From the NCBI RefSeq assembly GCF_013315695.1, contig NZ_CP054353.1: a stretch of 64,000 nucleotides of DNA. The stretch is one strand, 5' to 3'. This stretch comes from Escherichia coli (lineage in GTDB: Bacteria; Pseudomonadota; Gammaproteobacteria; Enterobacterales; Enterobacteriaceae). This document shows, piece by piece, positions 24,387 to 27,919 of this stretch. Below the pieces are notes generated by a model. It saw nothing but the letters and a program-made list of their open reading frames with translations. It had not been told where the DNA came from and did not search any database. How positions within the stretch are numbered: position 1 is the stretch's first letter; every line of letters begins with the position of its first letter. The position numbers were made by a program, and so were the translations under genes.

Positions 24387-24586
24387 TGAAAGTGATAGCG
24401 CAGGATGGCGACACCGTTGATTTACTCTGCCAGCGTCATTACGGCATGACAAAAGGCGTGACGGAGCGCGTCCTGGCAGCCAATCCGGGGCTGAGCAGCA
24501 CCGTATTTCTGGCGACAGGTCAGGAAGTGGAGCTGCCGGAAATCACACAGGAAAAACAGCGCGAAACCGTTCAGTTGTGGGATTGA
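24386..24586 (+). CDS. tail protein X, P2 gpX-like (LysM-like)
   Basis: 66 aa MKVIAQDGDTVDLLCQRHYG...AANPGL...; coupled to L stop. Confidence 0.8.
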   Translation: MKVIAQDGDTVDLLCQRHYGMTKGVTERVLAANPGLSSTVFLATGQEVELPEITQEKQRETVQLWD

Positions 24587-24588
24587 TT

Positions 24589-24879
24589 ATGTTTCAGAGA
24601 ATTTACGACCACATTACGTTTTTCACATCCGTCATGGTCACCGGTATAGGGGTTATGACGCTGAGCGAGAAGATGGCGCTGGCCGGGCTGATTCTGGGGG
24701 CTCTTTCTCTGCTGCGTGGATGGATGCACAGAACACGTATGGAGCAGGCACAGGAGCGCCGCAACGAGCTTATTGCACGCATAGCCGACCAGATGCAGCA
24801 ACGACCACTAAAAGGCAGCGAGAAACGCGCTCTGGAGGCGCTGAAAGCAGACGGAGATACTCATGGGAAACCAGGTTAA
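24589..24879 (+). CDS. holin (96 aa, two TM segments)
   Basis: Position before the endolysin; TM segments ITFFTSVMVTGIGVM and MALAGLILGALSLL. Confidence 0.7.
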   Translation: MFQRIYDHITFFTSVMVTGIGVMTLSEKMALAGLILGALSLLRGWMHRTRMEQAQERRNELIARIADQMQQRPLKGSEKRALEALKADGDTHGKPG

Positions 24880-25402
24880 ACGTTATACCGTTGCCGCCAT
24901 CGTGGCGCTGGGTTTTTCGCTGGCCCCCGGGGAACTGAGAACCTCACAGGAGGCACAGGAAAAAATAGCCACGTGGGAAGACTGCCGGGCCGTTCCGTAC
25001 AGGGATATCGCCGGGGTGAAAACCGTGGGCTGCGGCTCAACGGGAAACGTGCCCGACCGCCACCACACCCAACAGGAGGTTGCCGGTCGCTGGGTGAATG
25101 ATTTGCGACGGGCAGAGAACTGCATCAATCAGAACTTCAATGGCCGCGACATGCCACAGCGCCACTTCGAGGCAATGACGGATGCCGCCTTTAATCTGGG
25201 GTGCAAAGGTCTGATGTGGTTTAAGGGGCGTGACGGGAGAATGCACAGAACAACCATCTGGAAGTTCGCTCAGGGAAAGAACTGGAACGCAATGTGCGGC
25301 AGGCTGACGGATTTTGTGAACAGCGGCGGACGCTATTCACAGGGGCTGTTTAACCGACGGGACGACTTCCGGAAATGGTGTTCACAGGAGAACAAAACAT
25401 GA
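24863..25402 (+). CDS. SAR endolysin, GH24 lysozyme with N-terminal signal-anchor-release domain
   Basis: N-terminal weakly hydrophobic segment (YTVAAIVALGFSLAPG) then E-x8-D-x5-T catalytic triad (WEDCRAVPYRDIAGVKT). Confidence 0.8.
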   Translation: MGNQVKRYTVAAIVALGFSLAPGELRTSQEAQEKIATWEDCRAVPYRDIAGVKTVGCGSTGNVPDRHHTQQEVAGRWVNDLRRAENCINQNFNGRDMPQRHFEAMTDAAFNLGCKGLMWFKGRDGRMHRTTIWKFAQGKNWNAMCGRLTDFVNSGGRYSQGLFNRRDDFRKWCSQENKT

Positions 25403-25842
25403 GAGTCACCGTCATCATTGTCTGGCTGGTTGTGACGCTTCTGTTATGTGGGCTGGTCGGCTGGGAAGCATACCGCAAGGGGCAGGAAAGTCTGGGGAGA
25501 CAACAAATGATGGATGTCATCGAGGACAACCGGGCCGCCATGCATGAAGTCCGCGAGGCATACAGCGATTTTTCGCGGGTGATTAACATCATCCGGATCC
25601 TGGACCAGCAACGCATCACCGAAGGAGAGCAACGACGTGAAGCTATGCAGAAGGCCGCACAGAATGATGCGTGTGCTGGCGCTCATCCTCCTGGCGCTGT
25701 CACTGAGCGGCTGCAACAGCACATCGCACACGTTGAAAACCAGACTCGTTTACGAGCCGGTGCCGGAAGTACTGACAAGGCAGACGCCGATCCCCTTTCT
25801 GGAGCGACCGGTGACCTGGTACCGGATAACCGAATGGAGTGA
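25399..25842 (+). CDS. i-spanin (Rz/LysB-like, N-terminal TM anchor)
   Basis: MRVTVIIVWLVVTLLLCGLVG TM then coiled-coil-like region; ATGA-coupled to endolysin. Confidence 0.7.
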   Translation: MRVTVIIVWLVVTLLLCGLVGWEAYRKGQESLGRQQMMDVIEDNRAAMHEVREAYSDFSRVINIIRILDQQRITEGEQRREAMQKAAQNDACAGAHPPGAVTERLQQHIAHVENQTRLRAGAGSTDKADADPLSGATGDLVPDNRME

Positions 25843-25948
25843 CCAGTTACTGGCTGCGCTGGATACATGCAACACAGACAAAGCCGCAATAGCCTGGCTG
25901 GACAAGCAGAGGGCAGAACGGGCGCAAGATGCACCCAATCAGGAGTAG
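25664..25948 (+). CDS. o-spanin lipoprotein (Rz1/LysC-like), overlapping the i-spanin in another frame
   Basis: MMRVLALILLALSLSGC with lipobox LSGC; overlapping architecture typical of spanin pairs. Confidence 0.7.
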   Translation: MMRVLALILLALSLSGCNSTSHTLKTRLVYEPVPEVLTRQTPIPFLERPVTWYRITEWSDQLLAALDTCNTDKAAIAWLDKQRAERAQDAPNQE

Positions 25949-25951
25949 ACG

Positions 25952-27889
25952 ATGAGCAAAAAACATTTTGAGTTGATTACCGCCATGAGCCGTACGGAGC
26001 TGGCTGAGAAAGTTAACGAACGTCTGGCGCTGGGCTGGCAGCTTCAGGGCGACGCACAGGTTGCGTCAGAGCCGGGCGTGCCGTGGTATTTGATGCAGGC
26101 CATGACCGGTGATCAGCCCGTCACCGACGAGCCGCAAATTGCTGTGGATGACGAAGGGAACACAATCAACGAACCGGAATACTACTTCGTCATTGCTCTG
26201 GCCGGGCAATCCAACGGCATGGCGTATGGCGAAGGTCTGCCGCTGCCTGAGACATACGATCGCCCCGATCAGCGCATTAAGCAACTGGCACGCCGCAGTA
26301 CTGTCACGCCGGGTGGTGCGTCCTGTAATTACAACGACATTATTCCTGCGGACCACTGCCTGCATGATGTTCAGGATTTGAGTAAGTTTTCACACCCGAA
26401 AGCCAGCGCAGCTCAGTATGGATGCGTGGGGCAGGGATTACATATCGCGAAGAAATTGTTGCCGTTTATTCCGGCGAATGCGGGCATTCTTCTGGTTCCG
26501 TGCTGTCGTGGTGGATCTGCGTTTACTACAGGGGGTGATGGCGCTTTCAGTGAAACAACCGGTGCAACAGAAGCATCGTCTCGTTGGGGGGTCGATAAAC
26601 CGTTATACAAGGATCTACTCACCCGAACAAAAGCCGCACTGAAAACCAACCCTAAAAACATTCTGCTTGCAGTGGTCTGGATGCAGGGCGAGTTTGACTT
26701 AAAACAAACAACGGCATATTCCAACCAGCCAGCGGCGTTTGATGCCATGGTGGCAAAATACCGCTCCGATCTGGCGGGCGTATCAGGTCAGTGCGTTGGT
26801 GGCTCTTCATCATCAGTACCCTGGATTTGTGGTGATACAACTTATTACTGGAAAGAGACATATCCAACCGAGTACGGTGTTGTCTATGGCGCATACAAAA
26901 ACAAGCAGGCTAAAAACATCTTCTTTGTGCCGTTTATGACGGATGAAAACGGTCAGAATGTTGGCACCAACGAGCCAGATGAAGATCCTGATATCACTGA
27001 AATCGACTATTACGGTTCTGGATGGCGCAAAGATAAAACCACATGGACAACGGCAGATCGTAAAACTCACTTTGGCTCATGGGCACGTCGGGGAATTATT
27101 TCAGATCGTCTTGCTACAGCAATAATTGAGCATGCAGGTAAAACGGAAGCACTTGTTTATGGCAGGGTAACGCTCAGTAAAGAGGAAGAGCGCCCGGAAG
27201 AGGAAGATGAACCCATTGTAAAACCCACAGCTGAACAGTCAGTTATACTTTACGACGCTAAAAATGCCTCAGATACCAATTTACAGGCGCTGAACTGGGA
27301 GTTGAAGGATGTCACCCCCTCTCTGATTCAGGAGGGAAGTAATAAGGCGTTGCGTCTTGAGAAAAGCAACAGTGCGAAACCATGGTCATTACTTCATAGT
27401 ATTGCAGCCGAAAAATCAGGACAACTTCTGGAAAAAGGCGGAGAAATTTCCGTTCGCTTCAAAATACCTGAAAACACCTCTCTTGATACAGGAAAAAATA
27501 AGTATGTGTTAGGGCTGTACTGGAAAATAGCGGGATGGCCAGGTGATGGCGGAGAAGGCTATCTGAGTTCTTTTCTTGTTCAGACAGATAAAGCAAACCT
27601 GGATGTTGTTTACCATTACAACAGTAATCAACTGAAAGATATTGGTACATTTGATGAGTTTGATCATGACTGGCATACGCTCGCATTCAGGTTTGAAGGC
27701 GGTAACAGCCTCAGCGTTACACCGGTGCTCGATGGTAAAGATGGTCAGGCGTTTGATCTTGTTAAGTGGACTAATTCAGCTAATGAGGCCAATAAGTTTA
27801 TTTTGACCGATATTACTGGCACAGCTGAAACGTATCCTGTCCTTATTGAGACAATCGAAGTTAAAGCAAACCAGGCAGCAGCGAAATAA
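25952..27889 (+). CDS. sialate O-acetylesterase, NanS-p-like (SGNH/SASA domain with C-terminal lectin-like region)
   Basis: 645 aa; GQSN block (ALAGQSNGMAYGEG); size and domain order match prophage NanS-p esterases as recalled; inserted between lysis and tail genes. Confidence 0.7.
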   Translation: MSKKHFELITAMSRTELAEKVNERLALGWQLQGDAQVASEPGVPWYLMQAMTGDQPVTDEPQIAVDDEGNTINEPEYYFVIALAGQSNGMAYGEGLPLPETYDRPDQRIKQLARRSTVTPGGASCNYNDIIPADHCLHDVQDLSKFSHPKASAAQYGCVGQGLHIAKKLLPFIPANAGILLVPCCRGGSAFTTGGDGAFSETTGATEASSRWGVDKPLYKDLLTRTKAALKTNPKNILLAVVWMQGEFDLKQTTAYSNQPAAFDAMVAKYRSDLAGVSGQCVGGSSSSVPWICGDTTYYWKETYPTEYGVVYGAYKNKQAKNIFFVPFMTDENGQNVGTNEPDEDPDITEIDYYGSGWRKDKTTWTTADRKTHFGSWARRGIISDRLATAIIEHAGKTEALVYGRVTLSKEEERPEEEDEPIVKPTAEQSVILYDAKNASDTNLQALNWELKDVTPSLIQEGSNKALRLEKSNSAKPWSLLHSIAAEKSGQLLEKGGEISVRFKIPENTSLDTGKNKYVLGLYWKIAGWPGDGGEGYLSSFLVQTDKANLDVVYHYNSNQLKDIGTFDEFDHDWHTLAFRFEGGNSLSVTPVLDGKDGQAFDLVKWTNSANEANKFILTDITGTAETYPVLIETIEVKANQAAAK

Positions 27890-27896
27890 TAAAAAA

Positions 27897-27919
27897 CCCC
27901 CTCCGGCATTCGGAGGGGG
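27897..27919. other. strong GC stem-loop (ccccctccg-gcatt-cggaggggg) after the esterase gene
   Basis: 9-bp stem; A-run on the 5' side, so the T-run is on the minus strand. Confidence 0.5.

Follow-up and report, generated by a model that had tools for sequence, protein, structure and literature searches.

How would a P2-like prophage of Escherichia coli keep its lysozyme in check, and then set it free, when this enzyme resembles P1 Lyz and yet lacks the cysteines on which the control of P1 Lyz depends? The question is raised by positions 24,589 to 25,948 of a 64,000-nucleotide stretch of E. coli DNA (assembly GCF_013315695.1, contig NZ_CP054353.1), the whole of which is referred to hereinafter as the window. 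Four intact and tightly coupled open reading frames (ORFs), all on the forward strand and with no gaps between them, encode here a holin, a lysozyme and the two components of a spanin. Since each product matches a lysis family, the four ORFs are not chance products, and the four-gene lysis cassette recognized in the initial annotation is confirmed. We are confident, on the whole, that these are the lysis genes of a P2-like prophage (Peduoviridae), carried in its late operon (O-type) and built on the plan of HP1 and phage 21 and not on that of P2. The loss of the P1 Lyz cysteine switch from the lysozyme is the only unusual feature of the cassette; the system is otherwise of a known kind.

The lysozyme gene (24863–25402, forward strand) codes for a protein of 179 residues with a T4-lysozyme (GH24) fold, which matches PF00959 (2.9e-20) and aligns with P1 Lyz (1XJT) with an E-value of 5.8e-34, the alignment starting at residue 13, that is, inside the anchor. 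The relationship with R21 of phage 21 is distant (E-value 2.5e-4, an indicative value), and RrrD is likewise distant. The catalytic triad, as read from the translation, follows the spacing E-x8-D-x5-T and is made up of E39 (24977–24979), D48 (25004–25006) and T54 (25022–25024), so that it spans positions 24977–25024 of the forward strand and aligns with E42, C51 and T57 of P1 Lyz. At the N-terminus, after K6 and R7, residues Y8 to G23 (YTVAAIVALGFSLAPG; 24884–24931, forward strand) form a putative signal-anchor-release (SAR) segment of 16 uncharged residues, 50% of which are Gly, Ala, Ser or Thr; in hydropathy it falls well short of the transmembrane domain (TMD) of the i-spanin encoded downstream.

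The structural model points in the same direction. An AlphaFold (AF2) model built with 32 homologues reached a mean predicted local distance difference test score of 88.6, with values of about 93 in the blocks covering residues 11–30 and a helix at residues 10–20. The best Foldseek match of this model was 1XJT, which is described in its Protein Data Bank title as the active form of P1 Lyz (template modeling (TM) score 0.83, root-mean-square deviation 2.2 Å over 170 columns, the anchor helix included), whereas the match to 1XJU, the “secreted inactive form”, was much poorer (TM score 0.57, deviation 7.8 Å); the comparison with R21 (3HDE/3HDF) gave a TM score of about 0.6. The model shows the anchor packed against the enzyme body, but AF2 may reproduce the active conformation of P1 Lyz simply for having been trained on that structure. 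Moreover, the mean column identity of the anchor (0.74) is close to that of the catalytic domain (0.78–0.80), and Pro22 is invariant. The homology with P1 Lyz, the triad E39/D48/T54, the match of the model to 1XJT and the conservation of the anchor thus support the idea, already put forward in the initial annotation, of a SAR endolysin with a GH24 catalytic triad, and on sequence and model the protein is best assigned to the P1 Lyz family.

The same data suggest that the anchor is probably not cleaved. Signal peptidase I disfavors proline at positions from −3 to +1, and the invariant Pro22 would fall, by inspection, at +1 of an S-L-A site and at −2 of an A-P-G site, the only two plausible sites, both of which should therefore be disfavored by the enzyme. 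The alternative is that the N-terminus is a Sec signal peptide of the usual, cleavable sort and that the lysozyme is a soluble periplasmic enzyme, like Lys44 of the oenococcal phage fOg44, controlled in some other way. Two points weigh on this side: the hydrophobic core of the anchor is short (about 14–16 residues, as cleavable Sec signal peptides typically are too), being preceded by K6 and R7 and followed by the small residues S19, A21 and G23, and SignalP calls the SAR segments of the homologous HP1 Lys signal peptides (PMC7312051). However, P1 Lyz, the closest studied homologue, keeps its anchor, which is not removed by signal peptidase (PMC6116005) and is visible in the crystal structure matched by the model; the anchor is conserved nearly as well as the catalytic domain, unlike fast-evolving signal peptides; and sister proteins at the level of 60–65% identity carry a Cys in the anchor segment together with the P1-type Cys pair, an arrangement that is sensible only if the segment is retained on the mature enzyme. 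We consider a cleaved signal peptide very improbable.

It is the cysteines that set this lysozyme apart from P1 Lyz. P1 Lyz has seven of them, including Cys13 in the anchor and the catalytic Cys51, and it uses disulfide isomerization; the window lysozyme has six, with Tyr8 and Asp48 at the corresponding positions and a new Cys57, the Cys two residues after the catalytic Glu (position E+2) and four further Cys being conserved between the two. No Cys occurs in residues 1–40, so that the position of the anchor Cys is held by Tyr8, and Asp48 stands at E+9 in the place of the catalytic Cys that the Cys at E+2 cages in P1 Lyz, Cys41 at E+2 being kept. In the Lyz103 subclass, Cys occupies both E−1 and E+2, the SAR segment has a further one, and the catalytic Glu is caged by a disulfide; in the window lysozyme E−1 is occupied by Trp38 and the anchor Cys is missing.

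These differences are not scattered. Among 32 close homologues, three columns covary perfectly, being either Y8/D48/C57 or C8/C48/[ILMV]57. The first combination (Group A) is found in the window protein and in 15 others, mostly from E. coli; the second (Group B), with an anchor Cys, Cys at E+9 and Ile, Leu, Met or Val at E+18, is found in phiT5282H, a Klebsiella phage, HP1, proteins of Dickeya and Serratia, and others. Cys41 is invariant in both groups. In a neighbor-joining tree of 86 anchor-bearing homologues, constructed with the three covarying columns and the N-terminus masked, the members of Group A fall together in one clade, which lies within the P1-type clade of the enterobacteria, and at two unrelated points of the tree, P0054/P0072 and P0113, a Cys-free anchor is again combined with Cys at E+2 and E+18 and with Asp at E+9. 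The number of cysteines follows the same division: in a set of 162 homologues, 119 are of the P1 type, 112 of which have an odd Cys count (usually seven), and 18 are of the window type, all but one of them (17/18) with an even count (usually six). A further 13 proteins of this set combine an anchor Cys and Cys at E+2 with Asp at E+9, and all have seven Cys. From P0113 the two cysteines of the last pair are absent at once, which fits pairwise bonding. According to the comparison of codons, at least five nucleotide changes separate the window-type from the P1-type Cys states, and no intermediates between the two were found in the sampled near clade.

Among the relatives with an anchor Cys and Asp at E+9, some (such as P0117, P0131 and P0213) show a Lyz103-like C-E-x-C, and P0213, which is 56% identical to the window lysozyme, belongs to the same enterobacterial clade. 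Three Cys schemes, that is, the P1 type, the cage of the Lyz103 type and the window type, hence coexist in one enterobacterial lysozyme clade.

What do these substitutions imply for the enzyme? The thiol of the released P1 Lyz anchor reportedly drives the disulfide isomerization, a result attributed to Xu et al. 2005. P1 Lyz is kept inactive by a disulfide that engages its catalytic Cys and persists up to activation (PMC3556154). Judged from its residues, the window lysozyme cannot operate a P1-type disulfide-isomerization switch, because it has neither a free thiol nor a caged catalytic Cys. According to prediction, all six of its periplasmic cysteines form pairs, and Cys41 (24983–24985, corresponding to Cys44 of P1 Lyz) most likely bonds the new, clade-specific Cys57 (25031–25033), as the covariation suggests; the predicted pair (24983–25033, forward strand) would bracket the D48/T54 hairpin, closing a loop around these two residues. 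In the model, DSSP pairs residues 46–47 with 53–54 and places isolated bridge residues at 7 and 42, a register that would put positions 41 and 57 on neighboring strands as diagonal neighbors and that is compatible with position 8 lying beside Cys41. From these data one can speculate that the clade descended from thiol-switch enzymes by three coupled changes, in the anchor (Cys to Tyr), at the catalytic position (Cys to Asp) and at E+18 (Ile to Cys), that the regulatory disulfide was turned into a permanent Cys41–Cys57 staple over the catalytic hairpin, that control passed wholly to tethering and refolding, and that this happened independently in at least three lineages; the arguments for this scenario as a whole seem to us evenly poised.

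A different reading of the same residues is that Cys41 and Cys57 do not form a fixed structural disulfide, being instead either reduced or part of an inhibitory cage around D48 and T54 opened by a host oxidoreductase. Such a cage would have a parallel in Lyz103, whose active site is reportedly caged by a disulfide (work ascribed to Kuty et al. 2010, which is cited in PMC7912344), and Cys41 and Cys57, from the DSSP register of the model, appear to be diagonal and not direct cross-strand neighbors. On the other hand, in all proteins with Cys at E+18 the residue at E+2 is also Cys, that at E+9 is Asp and the anchor is free of Cys, and this holds in three separate lineages; the even Cys count of nearly all window-type proteins is what would be expected if all cysteines were paired in the oxidizing periplasm; and, in the absence of a free thiol, the lysozyme has no built-in way of opening a cage on anchor release. 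A reduced or caging pair is thus rather unlikely in our opinion, and the fixed Cys41–Cys57 disulfide is the reading adopted in what follows. No earlier description of this Cys arrangement was found in a literature search whose range did not extend to the primary Lyz103 and R21 papers, the likeliest to mention it.

The next question concerns the partner that would release such an enzyme. The gene preceding that of the lysozyme (24589–24879, forward strand), with which it shares 17 nucleotides, codes for a protein of 96 residues that matches the holins of PHROG 1350 (4e-24), so that the identification as a holin made in the initial annotation holds. Its hydropathy profile reveals two hydrophobic segments (approximately residues 9–25 and 29–46) separated by a three-residue loop, Ser-Glu-Lys, and followed by a basic C-terminal tail; by the positive-inside rule, this would correspond to a class II topology, with both termini in the cytoplasm. 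The motif G33xxxG37 in the second TMD is invariant across the family, and a G-xxx-G is also present in HP1 Hol. The HP1 holin family, PF16080 (Phage_holin_2_3), is the top Pfam match for 8/8 members of the holin family, always below threshold (best E-value 1.9e-4); the window holin itself scores 18.6 bits, the gathering cut-off being 28.8, and is therefore treated here as a probable distant relative of PF16080 and not as a filed member. When the family was compared with HP1 Hol by hhalign, 59 collinear columns, extending over the two TMDs and into the first part of the tail, were aligned with a probability of 50% and an E-value of 1.6e-4. The same comparison revealed no relation with P2 Y (probability 3%), which belongs to another holin family with three TMDs (PF04550), none with LydD, the pinholin linked to P1 lyz, and none with S21 68, the last result being indicative only.

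The suggestion of the initial annotation that this holin may be a pinholin stands as a probable interpretation, drawn from its topology, its SAR endolysin neighbor and its sub-threshold relation with HP1 Hol, and we favor it with moderate confidence. Most phages with a SAR endolysin encode a pinholin, the two genes being usually adjacent (PMC9239132, PMC9025707), and in the cassette the holin gene not only adjoins but also translationally overlaps that of the SAR endolysin. HP1 Hol, which HP1 needs in order to be released, kills cells without release of β-galactosidase, and HP1 Hol and Lys were called by the authors a pinholin and a SAR endolysin (PMC7312051). However, several observations weigh against a pinholin: the link with HP1 Hol lies below the Pfam threshold and its hhalign probability is only 50%; the first TMD is moderately, and not weakly, hydrophobic (summed Hessa score of 0.9 versus 6.2 for the first TMD of S21 68, figures that are only indicative); and SAR endolysins also function with canonical holins, as P1 Lyz does with LydA and R21 does in lambda (PMC9025707). 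The protein might accordingly be a canonical large-hole holin, or one of undefined hole size, merely paired with a SAR endolysin, given that hole size is not readable from sequence and that no similarity with the proven pinholins S21 68 (an indicative comparison) and P1 LydD is detectable. Against this possibility, which we regard as real but doubtful, stand the class II topology with two TMDs, the consistency with which the HP1 holin family emerges as the best match, together with the absence of β-galactosidase release by HP1 Hol, the conserved G-xxx-G of the second TMD, the position of the gene, and the absence of a LysA-type antiholin, no lysA homologue being present among the ORFs of the cassette between the lysozyme and the spanins. 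A pinholin remains the preferred assignment, with little weight left for anything other than these two kinds of holin.

The start of the holin may lie further upstream, where an in-frame GTG at 24577 (GTG GGA TTG ATT, 24577–24588, forward strand), 12 nucleotides before the ATG, would add “MGLI” before Met1 and yield a 100-residue form, overlapping the end of gene X by 10 nucleotides. Relatives are annotated from the equivalent start (“MGLSFFQR” in phiT5282H and “MELNIFQR” in P0191). A dual-start antiholin of the lambda or phage 21 type was considered and rejected, the four residues added by the upstream start being uncharged. Also rejected was a role of the 96-residue protein as a Mu-type releasin. 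Releasins belong to DUF2730, have a single TMD with the N-terminus outside, and carry an acidic domain on the cytoplasmic side (PMC9239132); the 96-residue protein, with its two TMDs and basic tail, does not match DUF2730.

The cassette is completed by a spanin pair. The i-spanin gene (25399–25842, forward strand), whose start overlaps the lysozyme stop in the sequence ATGA, codes for 147 residues matching the Rz-like spanins of PHROG 214 (2.4e-23), with a strongly hydrophobic N-terminal TMD (residues 4–20) and a periplasmic helical domain. The o-spanin gene (25637–25948, forward strand; 103 residues from its GTG) lies in the +1 frame relative to that of the i-spanin, sharing 206 nucleotides with it and extending 106 nucleotides past its stop; the product is a lipoprotein that matches PF23793 LysC (Rz1-like; 45.3 bits and 8.4e-12, above the gathering threshold of 27) and PHROG 456 (3.9e-23), and it contains the lipobox L-S-G-C (25703–25714) with Asn at +2. 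GTG 25637 is most likely the start, with ATG 25664 and ATG 25667 as alternatives: a Shine-Dalgarno sequence, AAGGAG (25622–25627, forward strand), lies nine nucleotides upstream of it, and a GTG located 26 codons before the lipobox Cys is conserved in E. coli G1/2, which has no ATG alternative, and in phiT5282H. An o-spanin that runs beyond the i-spanin stop, as in lysB/lysC of P2, is termed “overlapped”, and one lying wholly inside, as in lambda Rz/Rz1, is termed “embedded” (PMC6139136). The window pair is thus an overlapped two-component spanin, because the o-spanin stop at 25948 lies past that of the i-spanin at 25842; the initial annotation had correctly described an o-spanin lipoprotein starting inside the i-spanin in another frame and extending past its stop, and only the word “embedded” in its title has to be replaced. 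BLASTP revealed no significant similarity between the i-spanin and P2 LysB, nor between the o-spanin and P2 LysC, even though the LysC Pfam model matches both o-spanins.

The o-spanin has not fared well in automatic annotation. In E. coli MSB1_4I, RefSeq (PGAP) reports it as a pseudogene “missing N-terminus”, and in strain G1/2 it was called as a truncated product of 71 residues. The ORF is nonetheless intact in both strains, with the conserved GTG start, the signal peptide and the lipobox, so that the pseudogene call is an annotation artefact, of a kind already documented for o-spanins (PMC6139136).

On the basis of these assignments, a plausible sequence of events can be proposed. The lysozyme would be exported by the Sec system and would stay tethered, in an inactive form, to the inner membrane by its short and weakly hydrophobic SAR segment, while the two-TMD holin would accumulate and then trigger, most likely by forming the small holes of a pinholin that collapse the membrane potential. 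Depolarization would allow the SAR segment to leave the bilayer and to fold onto the catalytic body, as in active P1 Lyz, and the released lysozyme would cleave the peptidoglycan by means of E39, D48 and T54; the i-spanin/o-spanin complex, freed from the meshwork of the wall, would finally disrupt the outer membrane. Activation of the lysozyme would depend on anchor release and refolding alone, as in R of phage 21, because disulfide isomerization is impossible without an anchor thiol and a catalytic Cys. R21 is reported to be activated through the release and refolding of its anchor (work ascribed to Sun et al. 2009).

The comparison with known systems shows that the cassette follows the plan of HP1. 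Like the window cassette, hol-lys of HP1, a Haemophilus phage of the Peduoviridae (Adamczyk-Poplawska et al. 2020, PMC7312051), belongs to a P2-like phage and consists of a small two-TMD holin gene overlapping that of a P1-Lyz-type SAR lysozyme and followed by a LysB-like gene; a dual-start motif and an antiholin are missing from both. The lysozymes share 38% identity, but the set of Cys of the P1 type (anchor, E+2 and E+9) is present in HP1 Lys and not in the window lysozyme, and the HP1 cassette follows the tail tube gene, whereas that of the window follows gene X, as in P2. The plan is also known from the lyz-lydD operon of P1, and P1 Lyz, the prototype SAR endolysin (1XJT/1XJU; Xu et al. 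2004, 2005), is the closest solved structure and has an N-terminal SAR anchor like the putative one of the window lysozyme. With S21 68/R21 of phage 21 the functional plan would be shared: neither anchor carries a thiol, and activation presumably occurs in both by refolding of the anchor onto the body, while the spanins of phage 21 are of the lambda type and those of the window are overlapped.

With respect to P2, the position in the operon and the layout of the spanins are conserved. The cassette occupies the same place in the late operon as Y-K-lysA-lysB-lysC, between the tail genes X and R, and the spanins of both are overlapped, PF23793 matching both o-spanins. However, P2 Y has three TMDs and belongs to PF04550, whereas the window holin has two and does not; P2 has lysA, which is absent from the window cassette; and P2 K, as the initial annotation had rightly anticipated in calling the lysozyme unlike it, is a soluble, lambda-R-like protein with no N-terminal hydrophobic segment to serve as an anchor, no PF00959 match and no E-x8-D-x5-T motif, all three of which are present in the window lysozyme. 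The holin and the endolysin of the window are hence non-homologous replacements relative to P2. The nearest phage records are Enterobacter phage phiT5282H and Klebsiella phage ST16-OXA48phi5.4 (Peduoviridae), with holins 50–55% and lysozymes 63–65% identical and with the same gene order, but their lysozymes keep the P1-type Cys triad, unlike that of the window. A near-equivalent cassette has been described in the Klebsiella phage KP12 (PMC9902359).

The genes flanking the cassette are P2-type head and tail genes, namely gpM (small terminase), gpL (head completion) and gpX (tail) upstream and R, S and V downstream. A scan of the cassette sequence found no promoter-like sites inside it, none of the minus-strand ORFs within it has a family match, and a search of NCBIfam with the four cassette proteins gave no useful family for any of them. 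A prophage of E. coli MSB1_4I, in whose chromosome RefSeq annotates the same genes, shares 99.9% identity with the window; a version with 87% identity is present in 14 further complete E. coli genomes, for a total of 15 out of 5,426 at a DNA identity of at least 80%. When the cassette was compared by megablast with 50,697 phage records, no match at the DNA level was obtained, relatives being found at the protein level only. In the MSB1_4I chromosome (NZ_LR898874.1), a second place also matches the cassette query, which suggests the presence there of a second, related P2-like prophage.

Directly downstream of the cassette, between the o-spanin gene (lysC) and the tail gene R, lies a gene (25952–27889, forward strand) for a NanS-p-type sialate O-acetylesterase of 645 residues, which is composed of DUF1737, SASA and DUF6645 domains and matches NanS (3PT5; 1e-116) and the C-domain of NanS-p (6YP6; 3e-38). 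It looks like acquired cargo inserted at this point, because its guanine-plus-cytosine (GC) content is 0.48 versus about 0.56 in its neighbors. Stx lambdoid phages are known to carry NanS-p-type genes as well, likewise beside those for lysis (PMC10462455). A strong hairpin (27897–27919), with a GC-rich stem of nine base pairs, eight of them GC pairs, and a T-run on the minus strand, directly follows the nanS-p stop and may be a terminator bounding the inserted gene.

Taken together, two non-homologous plans for lysis exist among the P2-like prophages of E. coli, that of the window being the rarer and occurring in the 15 complete genomes mentioned above. It is also poorly served by automatic annotation: the holin appears as “hypothetical” in RefSeq or as “phage tail protein” among NCBI protein names, the i-spanin is “hypothetical”, and the intact o-spanin is given as a pseudogene. 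Neither the annotation nor the lysis biology overturns current understanding. Nevertheless, lysozymes that share 60–65% identity, with or without the P1 thiol switch, represent a natural comparison set, in which exchanging the three covarying positions could show what the disulfide switch contributes to control over and above tethering. Finally, if the proposed conversion of a regulatory disulfide into a permanent staple were true, the regulation of SAR endolysins would be an evolutionarily interchangeable module.

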